UHGV virus genome: UHGV-1734134 | From: a virus | DNA length: 13,378 nt | Reading direction: 5' to 3' (one strand) | Part shown: one piece after another, positions 2,763 through 10,115 of the stretch | Numbering within the stretch: the stretch's first letter is position 1 | Layout of the letters: each line of letters opens with the position of its first letter | Notes under the pieces: generated by a model | Told to the model about the DNA's origin: nothing | The model's database searches: none | Seen by the model: only the letters and a program-made list of their open reading frames with translations | Translations under genes and position numbers: made by a program

Positions 2763-3651
2763 CGTGTTCACCCTCACGAACTTTCAGGTAGGTATTATCG
2801 TTAAGCAGGAAATCAAATCCCTTTTTGTGCCAGACGGTTCCGCGTTGATGGTTTGGGCGCTCTTCGAACATCCATCGGCAATTTTCGCCAACGTAGCTCA
2901 AATAATTTCTCCAGTCCTGCATCGTGAACCCATGCCCGTCAAGCTGGCGGGTTATCACTCCGGCTTTGCGCCAGAACGTTCGGATCTGGTTTTTACGCTT
3001 GTCATTCAGTGCGCGGATTCTTGGAGCTTCAGGAAGGATTTCGTGGTAAGCATCGACAACATCCTGACAGCTGACGGAAGGTTTTTTCTTGTCAGACTTT
3101 TTGTCTGCTGCGGTACTCTCTAATACGTCAGTATTAGAGATAATATTATTATATTCTTTATCTGTGGTAATTTGCTGGTAATCTGCTGGTACAGTATTGC
3201 TTGCAGGCATTGGTATTGCTGGCTTTGAGGTGGTAATTTGCTGGTAATCTGCTGGTACAAAATTTGACTGATAATCGTCATATTTCTCTACCGAGAAAAC
3301 TGAGAATTTACCGTGTGAAACCCAGTCAATCATGCCGAGTTTTTTGAACTTTCTAAGCAGGTACTGAACGCGATCTGGTTTGAGTCCTGTTTCAAACGCC
3401 AGAGAGTTTCTACCGCCAAGTAGCTTCCCTCTGCCTACCAGAATTTCTCCTGCGTCAGTCATTACATACTCAGGCGTATGCTTTGCTTTGAGGATTAAGT
3501 GAACCCACAGATGCGCAGCTTCTGCGTCCTTGTAAAACGGCACATCCATAATTTTACGGTGCAGCAAGGCATACCCCTTACCGCTGCTTTGATGCGGTTG
3601 TTGTAGCCTTCTGGCCTCTCTGGCTTCGGCTAGATTAGATATGTTACTCAT
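2752..3651 (-). CDS. Replication initiator protein, lambda O-like (replisome organiser)
   Basis: 299-aa ORF with AAGGAG upstream of the ATG. Sits immediately upstream of the helicase, as O/gene 18 does in lambdoid phages. Its central linker is encoded by the iteron repeats (tandem peptide [10 protein letters not shown]). Confidence 0.8.
3121..3259. repeat. Putative phage origin of replication: AT-rich block plus iterons inside the O-like gene
   Basis: Perfect 30-bp direct repeat GTGGTAATTTGCTGGTAATCTGCTGGTACA at 3164-3193 and 3230-3259, each built from TGGTAAT(N)TGC sub-repeats. Adjacent AT-rich stretch 3121-3160 (taatacgtcagtattagagataatattattatattc). Same architecture as ori-lambda inside O. 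Confidence 0.65.
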
Positions 3652-3790
3652 GACCTTTCTCCTTCTGCATCAGCTTCACTTTTTCCAACTCAGCCCGGAA
3701 TCGACCAGGCTGCTTGAAGCTGGACAGGAAGCGATCACGTAGTATGTGTTTGTGAATTTTGTCCTGGTAAGGACTGAGTTGTTTTGTCAT
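3644..3790 (-). CDS. Small ORF (48 aa) between cII and the O-like gene
   Basis: ATG at 3790 with GGGAG 6 nt upstream. Translation [48 protein letters not shown]. Stop overlaps the O-like start. Below the ORF-track size cut-off. Confidence 0.4.
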
Positions 3791-3824
3791 AATTACTCCC
3801 GTGGATTGATCCAGTCTTTCTACA

Positions 3825-4103
3825 TTAGGCCTCGAAGAATTCGCCGTTCTTCGGGGCTTTTTCTTTTGTCAGCATTCTGGCTACTTTCTTAGCCAGTTCC
3901 GCCAACTCCTCGTCTTCAACACCCCATTCAAGAACAGCCAGAAGCATTCCCATTTTTGGGATGAAGCTGTCTTTCCATCGCGAAATTTGCGATTCATTAA
4001 TCCCTAACGCGTCGGCAACATTTCGCTGGCCACGTACAGCAATTCGATTCAGGATGTTGCTTGTAATTGCATTCGCTTTCTTGCGAGTACTTGTAAGTTG
4101 CAT
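3825..4103 (-). CDS. cII: CII transcriptional activator
   Basis: From the internal ATG at 4103 the protein is 92 aa. It aligns closely with lambda CII as I recall it (e.g. [20 protein letters not shown]). The track's upstream start at 4163 would run into the nutR/tR1 region. Confidence 0.9.
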
Positions 4104-4222: not shown

Positions 4223-5575
<1,353 letters not shown>

Positions 5576-6035: not shown

Positions 6036-6368
6036 ATGGATGCACAAACACGCCGCCGCGAACGTCGCGCAGAGAAACAGGCTCAATGGAAAGCAGCAAA
6101 TCCCCTGTTGGTTGGGGTAAGCGCAAAACCAGTTAACCGCCCTATTCTCTCGCTGAATCGCAAACCGAAATCACGAGTAGAAAGCGCACTGAATCCGATA
6201 GACCTTACGGTGCTGGCTGAATACCACGAACAGATTGAAAGCAACCTGCAACGTATTGAGCGCAAGAATCAGCGCACATGGTACAGCAAGCCACGCAGTG
6301 AAATGGGTGTGACCTGCTCAGGCCGCCAGAAGCAACGCGGAAAATCAATTCCAGCTTATTACGATTGA
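6036..6368 (+). CDS. N: Antiterminator N (lambda type)
   Basis: 110 aa with AGGAG upstream. MDAQTRRRERRAEKQAQWKAANPLLVGVSAKPVNRPILSLNRKPKSRVESALNPIDLTVLAEYH... matches lambda N as I recall it, including the arginine-rich boxB-binding motif. Confidence 0.92.
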   Translation: MDAQTRRRERRAEKQAQWKAANPLLVGVSAKPVNRPILSLNRKPKSRVESALNPIDLTVLAEYHEQIESNLQRIERKNQRTWYSKPRSEMGVTCSGRQKQRGKSIPAYYD

Positions 6369-6514: not shown

Positions 6515-6571
6515 CAGGTAACTTAAGCGTATTTACTTTCGCAGCAAACCACTTATTTGAGAGGAATTAAT

Positions 6572-7195
6572 ATGTCATCAATCCGCTTAACTACGAGAAT
6601 GAAAGAGGAAATCGCTCGTAACGCTTTAATTAAGTCTGGGGTCTTCACTGAACTTGAAGAAGTAACAAAGTTAAAGAACCAGCTTGCACTTGACGCCAGA
6701 GTTATTGCGTTTGGCGGTAAAAAGAAAACTGAGGAAGTGGATCAGTTATCATCCAAGTTGGTAGCTATAAGTGAAGAACTTGAAAAGATGGGATGTTCAT
6801 TTTACTCATACGATGTTAGTTCTACTTCAATTTATCTGACTGTATCTGGCAGAAGGGTTGGATGGCATTCATATGGGAAAGACGGCAACGGCGAAGATAT
6901 ATTGCTCCCTACTCCGACCAAAGATAAATGCATGTTTAGCGCAGAACACGAAATAACAAAAAGGTTTGATGAAATCTGCGCATTGCAACAAAAACTTGAA
7001 GCCAAGAAAAAGGATATCGAATCAAATGTATGGGCTGCTTTGAACTCAGTCACAACAGTTAAGCGACTTATTGAAGTTTGGCCTGAAAGCAAAGAATTGC
7101 TACCAAAAGAAGCAGATAAAGCAAGTACAGCACTTCCTGCTTTACGGGTAGAAGATTTGAATAAGATGATTGGACTTCCTTCCGAGGCCGCATAG
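6572..7195 (+). CDS. Hypothetical protein (207 aa), AT-rich moron-like gene in the PL operon
   Basis: ATG at 6572 with GAGAGGAA upstream. No TM segment or signal peptide and no motif I recognise. Visibly lower GC than the flanking N and cIII/kil genes. Followed immediately by a terminator. Confidence 0.75.
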   Translation: MSSIRLTTRMKEEIARNALIKSGVFTELEEVTKLKNQLALDARVIAFGGKKKTEEVDQLSSKLVAISEELEKMGCSFYSYDVSSTSIYLTVSGRRVGWHSYGKDGNGEDILLPTPTKDKCMFSAEHEITKRFDEICALQQKLEAKKKDIESNVWAALNSVTTVKRLIEVWPESKELLPKEADKASTALPALRVEDLNKMIGLPSEAA

Positions 7196-7554: not shown

Positions 7555-7691
7555 CCATCAATCACCAGATGCTTCGTGCTGCACAAAACAAAGCAGTAAT
7601 AGCCAGATTTATTGGTGATTCCAAAATGTGGCTTGAAGCAAATAAAGCGATGAAATCAGCTATCAACCTTCCGTGGTATCGCAGGAAATGA
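7539..7691 (+). CDS. kil: Kil-like host-killing protein
   Basis: 50 aa. The block VIARFIGDSKMW resembles lambda Kil TIATFIGDEKMF (from memory). Overlaps the cIII end, as in lambda. Below the ORF-track size cut-off. Confidence 0.5.
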   Translation: MRNEIAINHQMLRAAQNKAVIARFIGDSKMWLEANKAMKSAINLPWYRRK

Positions 7692-7846
7692 GTTTTACAG
7701 ATAACTGGTCAGACGAAGAATTCATTCGTCAGATGAAAGAATTAATCGGTAACGAAGGAGATATTCATGTCACTTGCAACCACAGTGAAGGAGAGCAAGT
7801 TACAGAGACGCATGTACACGCAGAAAGCTCTCTGGTATCGCCATAA
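7688..7846 (+). CDS. Small acidic ORF (52 aa), start coupled to the kil stop
   Basis: ATGA overlap with kil. Translation MSFTDNWSDEEFIRQMKELIGNEGDIHVTCNHSEGEQVTETHVHAESSLVSP. No obvious RBS beyond the coupling. Confidence 0.3.
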   Translation: MSFTDNWSDEEFIRQMKELIGNEGDIHVTCNHSEGEQVTETHVHAESSLVSP

Positions 7847-7937
7847 TGGCGACCGCGAAGGAATGCGGGTATGCCTTAATTTGTCTCGAGTCGAAGTATT
7901 AAATCAGCGTTATTTCCTTGGGCCGTGTCCATTCTGA
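7767..7937 (+). CDS. Small basic ORF (56 aa) overlapping the previous ORF in another frame
   Basis: ATG at 7767 with AAGGAG 7 nt upstream. Translation MSLATTVKESKLQRRMYTQKALWYRHNGDREGMRVCLNLSRVEVLNQRYFLGPCPF. Ends 9 nt before the annealase gene. Confidence 0.4.
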   Translation: MSLATTVKESKLQRRMYTQKALWYRHNGDREGMRVCLNLSRVEVLNQRYFLGPCPF

Positions 7938-7945
7938 GGTGAATT

Positions 7946-8653
7946 ATGGATTTGAATAAATTCGATGAGCCATTCAGCCCTGAAGATATCGAATGGCGAA
8001 TACAGCAAAGCGGTAAAACACGCGATGGCAAAGTGTGGGCTATGGTGCTGGCTTATGTCACGAACCGGGCAATCATGAAACGCCTGGACGATGTTTGCGG
8101 CAAAGCAGGATGGCGCAATGAATACCGCGATATTCCCAACAACGGAGGCGTTGAATGCGGCATATCAATCAGGATTGATTCCGAATGGGTAACCAAATGG
8201 GATGCTGCTGAAAACACGCAGGTAGAAGCCGTCAAAGGTGGTCGTTCAGGTGCAATGAAGCGTGCTGCCGTTCAGTGGGGAATCGGTCGGTATCTGTATA
8301 ACCTTGAGGAAGGTTTCGCACAAACATCTCTCGATAAAAAGCAGGGATGGCACAGGGCAAAACTCAAGGATGGAACAGGATTTTACTGGCTCCCTCCATC
8401 GCTGCCGGGATGGGCAATCCCAGCATCAGATAACAAACCATCACCAGAAAATACCAACCAGAAATCTCCATCGGTTGACTGCGAGCAAATCCTGAAAGAC
8501 TTCAGCGATTATGCGTCAACAGAAACTGACAAGAAAAAACTCATCGAGCGTTATCAGCGTGACTGGCAATTAATGGCTGGCAACGAGGAGGCGCAGGCTA
8601 AATGCGTTCAGGTAATGAACATCAGAGTTAACGAACTAAAACAGGCGGCATAA
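7946..8653 (+). CDS. Single-strand annealing protein, Rad52/Rad22 (Sak-like) family
   Basis: 235 aa with GAGGTG upstream. The core ...GGVECGISIRID...GGRSGAMKRAAVQWGIGRYLYNL is characteristic of the Rad52/22 annealase fold. Sits in the position lambda uses for bet. Confidence 0.75.
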   Translation: MDLNKFDEPFSPEDIEWRIQQSGKTRDGKVWAMVLAYVTNRAIMKRLDDVCGKAGWRNEYRDIPNNGGVECGISIRIDSEWVTKWDAAENTQVEAVKGGRSGAMKRAAVQWGIGRYLYNLEEGFAQTSLDKKQGWHRAKLKDGTGFYWLPPSLPGWAIPASDNKPSPENTNQKSPSVDCEQILKDFSDYASTETDKKKLIERYQRDWQLMAGNEEAQAKCVQVMNIRVNELKQAA

Positions 8654-9121
8654 ATGTCTCACTTGGACGGAATTATTAAAAGATTCGAGTCCAGCTACAA
8701 AGTTAATGAAACAACAGGTTGCTGGGAGTCTACCTATTCAAAAAACAAAGGAGGATACACAAAATTTGTAGCCTTTGGCGTAACAATGCTTTCTCATCGG
8801 GTTGCTTTTGAGCTTTATCACTCCCCCATTCCATCTGGGAAGATGGTTTGCCACAAATGCGATAACCCATGCTGCGTTAATCCTGAACATCTCTTTTTAG
8901 GTAGCGCGCAAGAAAACATGGACGACAAGATAGCAAAAGGAAGGCATCGTGGAGCCAAAAAAGGTCATGCTCATCATGGTGCAAAATTAACAGAGTGGCA
9001 GGTTATAGAAATTAGGAAAAGACTCTCTGAAAAAGAGAGTCAGTACAAGATAGCAAAAGACATGGGTGTATCTCAATCAATTATAAGCAACATAAAAATT
9101 GGCAAGAGGTGGAGCAAATGA
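8654..9121 (+). CDS. HNH homing-type endonuclease
   Basis: 155 aa. HNH motif [15 protein letters not shown]..., with a C-terminal basic helix-rich region ([13 protein letters not shown]) typical of the DNA-binding tail of HNH homing endonucleases. Lower GC. Wedged between the annealase and SSB with abutting start and stop codons. Confidence 0.8.
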
Positions 9122-9633
9122 GTTCTCGCGGGATAAATAAGGTGATCATTATTGGTCGCCTTGGGCATGATCCAGAAATCAGATATTCACCATCAGGAAC
9201 GGCATTTGCAAACCTTACAGTTGCTACGTCAGAACAATGGCGTGATAAGCAAACTGGAGAGCAAAAGGAGCATACGGAGTGGCACCGTGTGGTAATGAGC
9301 GGGAAACTGGCAGAAATTGCCAGCGAGTATCTGCGGAAAGGCTCAGAGGTTTATCTTGAAGGCAAATTGCGGACAAGAAAATGGCAGGATCAAAGTGGAC
9401 AGGATCGGTTCACTACCGAAGTCATCGTAGGCGTTGGTGGAACCATGCAAATGCTTGGTGGCAAGCAAGGAGGAAATGAACAGTCTTCTCCTCAGCGAAA
9501 TAACGGTCAGCAACAAAGACAGCAACCTCAGCAGCAGGGAAATCACAGCGAACCACCTATGGAGTTTGACGACGATATACCATTTGCGCCAGTAACTCTC
9601 CCCTTCCCTCGTCACGCTATTCACGCAATTTAA
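9118..9633 (+). CDS. ssb: Single-stranded DNA-binding protein (SSB) with an extended C-terminus
   Basis: ATG at 9118 overlaps the HNH stop (ATGA). The OB-fold N-terminus ([20 protein letters not shown]...TEWHRVV...) and Gly/Gln-rich linker are typical. The canonical DDDIPF tail is followed by 15 more residues ([15 protein letters not shown]). Confidence 0.9.
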
Positions 9634-9646
9634 TCAGGAGAAAATC

Positions 9647-9940
9647 ATGCCAGCGCCTCTGTATGGTGCGGACGACGTGCGCCGCTGTTCCGGCAATTCC
9701 GTATCGGAGGTGCTGGATAAATTCAGAAAAAACTACGACCTGATAATGTCGCTACCGCAGGAAACGAAAGAGGAAAAGGAATTTCGTCATTGTATATGGC
9801 TTGCAGAGAAAGAAGAACGCGAGCGAATTTACCAGACATCAATCCGACCATTCCGCAAAGCCACATATACCCACTTCCCTGAAATTGACCCGCGCCTGCG
9901 TAATTACCGCTCACGCTATGGCGCTATCAGTAATGACTGA
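9647..9940 (+). CDS. Hypothetical phage protein (97 aa)
   Basis: ATG with CAGGAG upstream. No recognisable motif. Confidence 0.6.
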
Positions 9941-9950
9941 GGAATTTACC

Positions 9951-10115
9951 ATGAGAGGACTTGCATACAATCCCGGCATTCTTCCGGCAGAAATGATTAT
10001 TCGCCAACGCGTAAAGCCAATGCCATCGAGAGAGGAATTGCTTAAAAGGAAGAGTTTCGGTTCTGTTAATGACAACAAATATCTTAATGCGATGTGGCGG
10101 AGTGGGAAGAAATGA
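9951..10115 (+). CDS. Small hypothetical protein (54 aa)
   Basis: ATG at 9951 with GAGGAA upstream. The track's longer ORF from 9801 overlaps the previous gene. Confidence 0.45.

Follow-up and report, generated by a model that had tools for sequence, protein, structure and literature searches.

The HNH endonuclease gene that separates the annealase and single-strand-binding protein (ssb) genes of a lambdoid prophage belongs to a mobile unit which covers approximately bases 8654–9135 of the UHGV virus genome UHGV-1734134 (13,378 nt; this whole stretch is called the window below). The limit is placed beyond the end of the gene because a recoded block of ssb codons is linked to it in every carrier. 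The gene is a minority insertion with about 10% occupancy at one exact position. The most probable explanation, to which we attach a rough probability of 0.65, is that it is a free-standing homing endonuclease cassette engaged in active homing; the limits of the cassette, its polymorphism, its linkage to the recoded codons, an intact catalytic motif and the association of its clade with ssb are seen directly in the sequences, while cleavage, the location of the cleavage site and spread driven by the nuclease are what we infer from their comparison.

The window represents the early region of a lambdoid prophage and carries immunity, replication and recombination genes only (Table 1). The HNH open reading frame (ORF) belongs to the recombination module carried by the early-left operon (N to int). 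The initial annotation had placed an HNH gene exactly between the annealase and SSB genes, and the ORF is indeed present there, with Pfam matches for all three proteins. It had also read the junctions correctly. The annealase stop codon (TAA, 8651–8653) directly abuts the HNH ATG at 8654 (TAAATG), and the ssb ATG (9118–9120) and the HNH TGA (9119–9121) overlap as ATGA. In the program-made ORF list, ssb begins with an in-frame GTG (9109); RefSeq, by contrast, annotates the starts as given here, with the ATG for ssb, in an E. coli locus of 97% identity, and SSB homologues begin MSSRG or MASRG.

Table 1. Features in and around the HNH cassette (positions are those of the window)
Feature	Position	Strand	Evidence or remark
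ninB, DnaB-type helicase gene, cII, cro-like HTH gene		-	
299-aa ORF, possibly a replication gene		-	
cI-type repressor gene	4542–5174	+	
N gene	6036–6368	+	
Nmad5 gene	6557–7195	+	Pfam Nmad5 (nucleotide modification associated domain 5), E 1e-71
Rad52/22-type single-strand annealing protein gene	7946–8653	+	Pfam Rad52_Rad22, E 7e-26
HNH endonuclease ORF, 155 aa, ATG to TGA	8654–9121	+	Candidate free-standing homing endonuclease
HNH_3 (His-Me finger) catalytic core, residues 48–89	8795–8920	+	Pfam HNH_3
C-terminal three-helix helix-turn-helix DNA-binding module (predicted), residues 111–146	8984–9091	+	Weak HTH_38, model, Foldseek
Shine-Dalgarno-like AAGAGGTGGAG for ssb, within the last HNH codons (conserved K-R-W motif)	9104–9114	+	Sequence reading
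Phage ssb, 171 aa, type A allele	9118–9633	+	Pfam SSB, E 3e-38
Recoded ssb codons 2–6	9121–9135	+	29 carrier versus 120 empty loci
abc2 anti-RecBCD gene, downstream member of the recombination module	9647–9940	+	Pfam Anti-RecBCD_p2, E 9e-64
Ead/Ea22-like gene, then DUF551 gene	after abc2	+	

A lower GC content had also been put forward. The difference from the neighbouring genes exists (0.404 for the HNH ORF compared to 0.483 for the annealase gene and 0.481 for ssb) but, since this value only corresponds to the 8th percentile of 468-nt windows in the stretch and the Nmad5 gene is equally low (0.399), it is a real but weak sign of foreign origin and is not diagnostic alone. The Nmad5 gene (GC 0.40, like the HNH gene) also belongs to the early-left operon, downstream of N.

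HNH DNA occurs in 41 of 5426 complete E. coli genomes, at least 98.9% identical and adjoining ssb in all copies; 40 of the 41 are full-length. The annealase-ssb junction itself was found in 398 E. coli genomes, and about 40 of these approximately 400 are occupied, among them that of a prophage of the EPEC strain E2348/69; elsewhere the annealase stop abuts the ssb start directly. IMG/VR includes 24 occupied versus at least 120 empty junctions. A megablast search with 7700–9940 against 50,697 phage records retrieved the flanks in 243 records, with the HNH part covered in none. The annealase stop directly abuts the ssb start in phages ECP1 and HK75, and Sf6, mEpX2 and CurroJimenez share this empty junction but have other cassettes after ssb. 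The empty junction of Sf6, ECP1 or HK75 contains AACTAAAACAGGCGGCATAAATGGCAAGCAGAGGCGTAAATAAGGTGATC. The comparison of relatives suggested by the initial annotation therefore reveals a gene which is far from universal. Sporadic presence and absence at one precise site, the distribution by which free-standing homing endonucleases are recognized, is accompanied here by identical boundaries in every copy and by carrier flanks that match empty alleles within 0–2 nt. The corresponding intergenic site, which had been proposed as the target, does not exist. Since the annealase TAA abuts the ssb ATG in the empty alleles, the likely target is this junction together with the first ssb codons.

The only match among the 41 E. 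coli genomes which is not full-length is that of strain Z0117EC0133 (locus L008, 2282–2868). It lacks the first 100 nt of the HNH gene and abuts DNA-ejection genes on the opposite strand, an arrangement which indicates that a prophage rearrangement removed the annealase gene. The E2348/69 records include, besides the copy adjacent to ssb, a second place which matches HNH DNA and may be a partial copy in another prophage. In strain ET650 (locus L010) there are two further annotated HNH endonuclease genes in the same early-left operon (720–1136 and 4947–5468); annealase and abc2 are frameshifted in this decaying prophage, which has accumulated several HNH genes.

The anatomy of the cassette was examined by aligning four empty loci with six intact carriers and the window, and in a larger comparison of 29 carrier loci with 120 empty loci. 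Twenty-eight of the carriers, including the window, have an intact HNH gene, the 29th being L008. The window copy differs from each of the 27 others at 0–4 of 464 nt. To the left, all alleles have an annealase gene of about 98% identity, this flank shows no association with the insert, and the junction is identical in HNH-carrying and empty alleles. To the right, ssb exists as two main alleles which have diverged by 20–45% over most of their length. Identity between +19 and +400 of ssb averages 87% among carriers, with a minimum of 64%. Both alleles accompany the HNH gene (type A in 7 and type B in 22 of the 29 carriers), with an enrichment of type B compared to the empty loci (49 of 120, together with 60 of type A). 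For 25 of 32 carrier loci there is an allele without the HNH gene whose right flank differs by no more than 2 nt per 382.

Every carrier reads AGT TCT CGC GGG ATA in ssb codons 2–6 after the ATG (AGTTCTCGCGGGATA) while empty alleles read GCA AGC AGA GGC GTA or a close variant (GCAAGCAGAGGCGTA); the host E. coli ssb begins like the empty phage alleles. The carrier allele is one in which the junction is split by the insert and 10 of the 15 nt of codons 2–6 are recoded. The ten positions concerned have a frequency of 1.0 in the 29 carriers and of 0–0.09 in the 120 empties. The effect on the protein is slight (MSSRGINK in carriers, MASRGVNK in empties). Recoded codons without the HNH gene were found in none of the E. 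coli genomes, IMG/VR sequences or metagenome contigs searched; as a positive control, the search of the metagenome contigs recovered eight occupied junctions. The recoded block would fit a destroyed target site which travels with the HNH gene, and we propose that codons 2–6 are its altered (immune) half. The ATGA overlap forces an A as the first base of ssb codon 2 but does not explain the other seven changes in the block. Nor, judging by prediction, would relief of mRNA structure at the ssb start account for the recoding: native and recoded codons are predicted to leave this start equally accessible (0.60 versus 0.61, and 0.44 versus 0.41).

The mobile unit is flanked on both sides by the pentamer AAATG, and the recoded block is followed by AAATAAGGTGAT. 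One carrier (L009) is chimeric: it has type B polymorphisms for about 35 nt past the recoded block and then switches to type A, which looks like a short co-conversion tract immediately downstream of the insert. A different ssb start, ATGGGAAGTAGAGGCGTA, is present in ECP1 (L002, 2455–2472) and in 7 of the 120 empty alleles. It departs from the common ATGGCAAGCAGAGGCGTA at three positions, and these minority alleles could be partly resistant variants of the target.

The initial annotation supposed that the operon had been invaded without being disrupted, and the way in which the translation signals are shared agrees with this. The HNH ATG holds the place of the ssb ATG of empty alleles, behind the same AAACAGGCGGCATAA. 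These last approximately 15 nt of the annealase gene (8639–8653) provide the translation-initiation region for ssb in empty alleles and for the HNH gene here. In return, the last HNH codons (K-R-W-S-K) read AAGAGGTGGAGCAA and furnish the displaced, overlapped ssb start with a new Shine-Dalgarno sequence, AAGAGGTGGAGCAAATG standing in front of ssb as its ribosome-binding site. Most related HNH-ssb loci have an equivalent AAAGGTGG motif ahead of the ssb ATG; in two of them it is reduced to GATGG or AATGG. A consensus promoter and terminator scan of 7600–10000 gave sites no commoner than in shuffled sequence and placed none for the HNH gene. We therefore treat the cassette as promoter-less.

Phages commonly encode homing endonucleases with an HNH_3 domain, and intronless homing is a well-known phenomenon. 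The protein encoded here matches Pfam HNH_3 (PF13392) over residues 48–89 (51 bits against a gathering threshold of 24.8; E 1.1e-13) and PHROG HNH families at E 1e-32 to 1e-17. The core includes H48-R49, a Cys/His cluster (C66, H67, C69 and C74), D70, N76, H79 and N88. An alignment of 52 sequences has 16 invariant columns (C23, R49, H67, C69, D70, C74, N76, P77, H79, L80, G83, N88, D91, K95, R97 and W153), and H48 is conserved in at least 90% of the sequences and present in the window protein. The initial annotation would have abandoned its reading had catalytic residues been missing from the alignment; every invariant residue is retained, although the catalytic roles of individual residues are putative assignments. 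The AF2 model (mean pLDDT 91.2) shows a core of strands followed by a helix, consistent with a beta-beta-alpha metal-finger fold, and helices at 114–125, 130–137 and 141–149. The best Foldseek matches in the PDB are I-HmuI, over the full length, followed by another His-Me finger enzyme, the His-Cys box homing endonuclease I-PpoI, and related Smad MH1 domains, all with marginal E-values (1e-3 to 1e-2), and a sequence search of the PDB yielded nothing significant (best E 0.049, a designed protein). Foldseek also matches the C-terminal part to helix-turn-helix DNA-binding domains, as does Pfam HTH_38 weakly and below its cut-off. The predicted protein would thus combine a nuclease domain with a sequence-reading DNA-binding module, the C-terminal three-helix helix-turn-helix. 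Judged by its substitutions, it is under purifying selection: dN/dS is 0.07 between the Cronobacter-type and Citrobacter-type lineages, and synonymous sites are saturated in comparisons with the E. coli type (pS 0.79–0.88, pN 0.17–0.19).

All seven relatives examined with 51–74% identity are encoded immediately upstream of ssb with an overlap of 4–8 nt. They come from enterobacterial prophages (P0002, 73%, in a cluster named for Cronobacter sakazakii), Citrobacter (P0003, 74%), Vibrio phage 1.079.O (61%), Shewanella algae (P0007, 59%) and metagenome contigs (P0005, 64%; P0009, 57%; P0015, 51%). A tblastn search of sequenced phage genomes gave a best match of 61% (the Vibrio phage, where the gene is beside ssb) and at most 51% in the other matches listed. 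The upstream neighbour, in contrast, varies among six families (Rad52-type annealase, ERF-type annealase, YqaJ exonuclease, Sipho_Gp157 and two unknown proteins). The association with recombination genes noted in the initial annotation thus holds for ssb, which is constant, but not for the annealase. Beyond this range the linkage disappears. A relative with 47% identity (P0018) is found among unrelated genes, and ssb is directly downstream in 0 of 79 IMG/VR relatives at 36–54% identity and in 3 of 80 genome relatives at 32–48%. The latter come from a scan of genome contigs (one genome per species) which contained distant relatives alone (32–48%) and served as a control for ssb linkage. Because distant relatives almost never adjoin ssb, the broad family is not an SSB partner. 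One clade, rather, is fixed at the ssb 5′ end, the pattern expected of homing endonuclease lineages, each of which is tied to one target.

The enterobacterial lineages also share the recoded ssb start, AGTTCTCG(C/T)GG. The three HNH lineages concerned are 68–75% identical in nucleotide sequence and their synonymous sites are near or at saturation. That the block is nevertheless kept indicates a constraint on it at the nucleotide level.

Several identities can be set aside. The gene is not of an intron- or intein-encoded type: non-coding DNA is lacking on both sides, the adjacent genes are read in other frames than the ORF, and a search of the window against Rfam gave no match. Its location between recombination genes of the early-left operon distinguishes it from the packaging-associated HNH proteins of the HK97 gp74 type, which are encoded beside terminase and cos. 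As to a component of a defence system, PADLOC returned only a generic homing-endonuclease model (E 2e-7) and NCBIfam has no model for the protein.

We propose that bases 8654–9135 behave as a promoter-less mobile cassette of about 480 bp which comprises the HNH gene and five recoded ssb codons. When a genome carrying it encounters a relative without it, in a co-infected cell or on infection of a lysogen by a phage, the enzyme would cut or nick the empty allele at or near the junction between AAACAGGCGGCATAA and ATGGCAAGCAGAGGCGTAAATAAGG, and repair would then use the carrier genome as the template for the cassette. Protection of the carrier allele itself would come from the splitting of its site by the insert and the recoding of the right half. 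The lineage as a whole would specialize on ssb 5′ ends. This free-standing homing endonuclease, already suspected in the initial annotation, is favoured by the near-identity of the gene in diverged ssb backgrounds whose flanks have identical empty counterparts, by the perfect linkage of the recoded codons, by presence or absence at one exact position and by the location upstream of ssb of all relatives examined with at least 51% identity, and almost none of the distant ones. The retention of the family-invariant residues, the confident model resembling I-HmuI and I-PpoI with its helix-turn-helix, and purifying selection point in the same direction. Sequence data cannot by themselves prove active homing of a nuclease gene (PMC10448857). 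Some observations also run counter to it: with 40 of the 41 E. coli copies full-length, there is hardly any of the degeneration to which selfish endonuclease genes are often subject, the recoded codons could be a remnant of a donor ssb, and long-term, tight HNH-ssb linkage together with purifying selection would also fit a gene whose function is useful to the phage.

Among the alternatives, it is unlikely, in our estimation, that the HNH-ssb pair is more than a passing parasite and represents an old clade of ssb-start endonucleases which has become locked to ssb in gammaproteobacterial phages and serves as a weapon in phage competition. The overlap, and the location of the ssb ribosome-binding site in the last HNH codons, would prevent clean loss; the enzyme would cut the conserved ssb start of rival prophages, and carriers would owe their immunity to the recoded codons. 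The host ssb might be cut too, since only 2 of its first 26 nt differ from the empty phage allele. It is less probable still that the HNH protein is a genuine or domesticated part of the recombination (Rec) module, a nuclease or nickase co-translated with SSB and working with it and the annealase, for example in making ends for recombination-dependent replication. Conservation of the overlapping HNH-ssb pair from E. coli prophages to Vibrio and Shewanella (57–74% protein identity), the strong purifying selection, the intactness of 40 of the 41 E. coli copies and the argument that HNH genes packed tightly into lambdoid Rec modules probably belong there legitimately (PMC12315714) would all suit such a role. 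However, about 90% of otherwise near-identical modules do without the gene, six different gene families provide its upstream partner, the more distant members of its own family are hardly ever located near ssb, and the linked recoding of ssb would have no obvious role, predicted mRNA accessibility being unchanged; moreover, the HNH gene of ES18 named in PMC12315714 is encoded after ssb, like Sf6 gp26. Nor does the gene fill a missing nuclease slot, because other nucleases of the module co-occur with it: a DnaQ-like 3′-5′ exonuclease in L008–L011 and YqaJ in L103, L107 and L108. ORFs of the Rv2179c-like family (as the DnaQ-like gene) also follow ssb in L012–L014 and L016–L018.

Lambdoid phages are highly mosaic, and homologous recombination at conserved flanks could move a cassette of this type without any nuclease. 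The gene might then be a passive accessory whose product serves another purpose, such as cutting competing phages or host DNA, with the recoded codons as the leftover 5′ end of a donor ssb. Flanking homology is ample (the annealase gene, about 98% identical, on one side and AAATAAGGTGAT on the other), the left flank shows no allele association with the HNH gene, and other cassettes, the 3′-5′ exonuclease and the Sf6 gp26-type endonuclease, occupy nearby slots. We nevertheless judge such passive spread improbable, given that all copies, and three diverged HNH lineages, share one right boundary, that the domains of the protein are arranged as in sequence-specific homing enzymes, with a generic homing-endonuclease model as its sole PADLOC match, and that the whole lineage is faithful to one insertion point beside one gene, as homing directed to a target predicts.

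Among known systems, the nearest documented parallel to the homing cassette proposed here is segG of T4, which is located beside gene 32 (the T4 SSB gene), cleaves gene 32 and has gene 32 promoters embedded in it (PMC2988022). In both cases a free-standing endonuclease gene lies beside the gene of a phage single-strand-binding protein, as a cassette in an existing operon, and includes expression signals for the latter: promoters in T4, a Shine-Dalgarno sequence and start overlap here. There are also clear differences. SegG is a GIY-YIG enzyme of demonstrated activity whereas the HNH enzyme is predicted from its sequence and model; T4 gp32, unlike the SSB of the window, is not of the bacterial type; and the free-standing T4 enzymes cleave hundreds of bp from their insertion, while the recoding observed here points to a site at the insertion point. 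I-HmuI, an HNH homing endonuclease of phage SPO1 (PDB 1U3E), gave the best structural alignment (164 columns; Foldseek E 1.1e-3, probability 1.00). It appears to share the order of an N-terminal His-Me finger nuclease and a C-terminal helix-turn-helix with the modelled protein, but is only 17% identical, intron-encoded and a nickase. The Cys/His cluster (C66, H67, C69, C74) recalls the zinc loop of I-PpoI, for which the Pfam match is weak and below cut-off. The T4 Mob-class (MobE) and ICP1 HNH-3 genes also have the Pfam HNH_3 domain and are small, free-standing, located between essential genes and often promoter-less (PMC2790892, PMC10448857). The present gene differs from these in its predicted helix-turn-helix instead of a zinc finger, its temperate lambdoid prophage context and its putative target, ssb. 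The ES18 HNH and Sf6 gp26 genes occur sporadically in the same recombination module beside ssb. Sf6 gp26, however, has no sequence homology with the HNH protein (BLASTP E 18) and is encoded at the 3′, not the 5′, end of ssb.

The module includes other polymorphic slots. The gp26 cassette, unrelated to the HNH gene and at the other end of ssb, is present in Sf6 (L003, 2455–3417), L005 (2226–3188) and L009 (about 3437–3935). In Sf6-type alleles SSB ends early (...DSDIPF, followed by the stop codon), and the next ORF, gp26, is Cys/His-rich and without a Pfam match. Since gp26 ends with the last 14 residues of the full-length phage SSB of the window, it apparently inserted within the 3′ end of ssb and acquired the ssb tail. 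L009 has both the HNH and a gp26-type cassette, the second of which is left unannotated in RefSeq. The gap between ssb and abc2 is another presence/absence polymorphism, because it measures 13 nt in the window (9634–9646) and is filled in many relatives by a gene for the DnaQ-like 3′-5′ exonuclease (Pfam Rv2179c-like; L004, 2970–3518; L011, 3489–4037). Finally, genes for ERF-type (PF04404) and Rad52-type annealases share the same end, ...ELKQAA and stop (aaacaggcggcataa), just before the junction (L012, L014 and L015, about 3980–4000, compared to 8630–8653 of the window). A C-terminal tail or module thus seems to have been exchanged between unrelated annealase families, and may be either the left half of the homing site or a tail for interaction with SSB.

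The status of HNH genes in lambdoid Rec modules, as functional components or as mobile passengers, had been left open by a recent survey, which regards some as probable genuine members (PMC12315714). For the present HNH type, a mobile cassette is what the population data point to. The analysis extends the initial annotation by the exact cassette including the recoded ssb codons, a quantified polymorphism and a clade of HNH proteins associated with ssb starts in gammaproteobacterial phages. It provides a candidate target of about 35 bp, a natural and putatively resistant variant which differs at 10 nt, and sequenced phages with the empty site (Sf6, ECP1 and HK75). If the homing interpretation is correct, this would represent a small sequence-specific nuclease with a known natural target. 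It would also extend intronless homing, best characterized in T4-like lytic phages, to temperate enterobacterial phages and would illustrate the role of such elements in shaping the mosaic boundaries of the Rec module.
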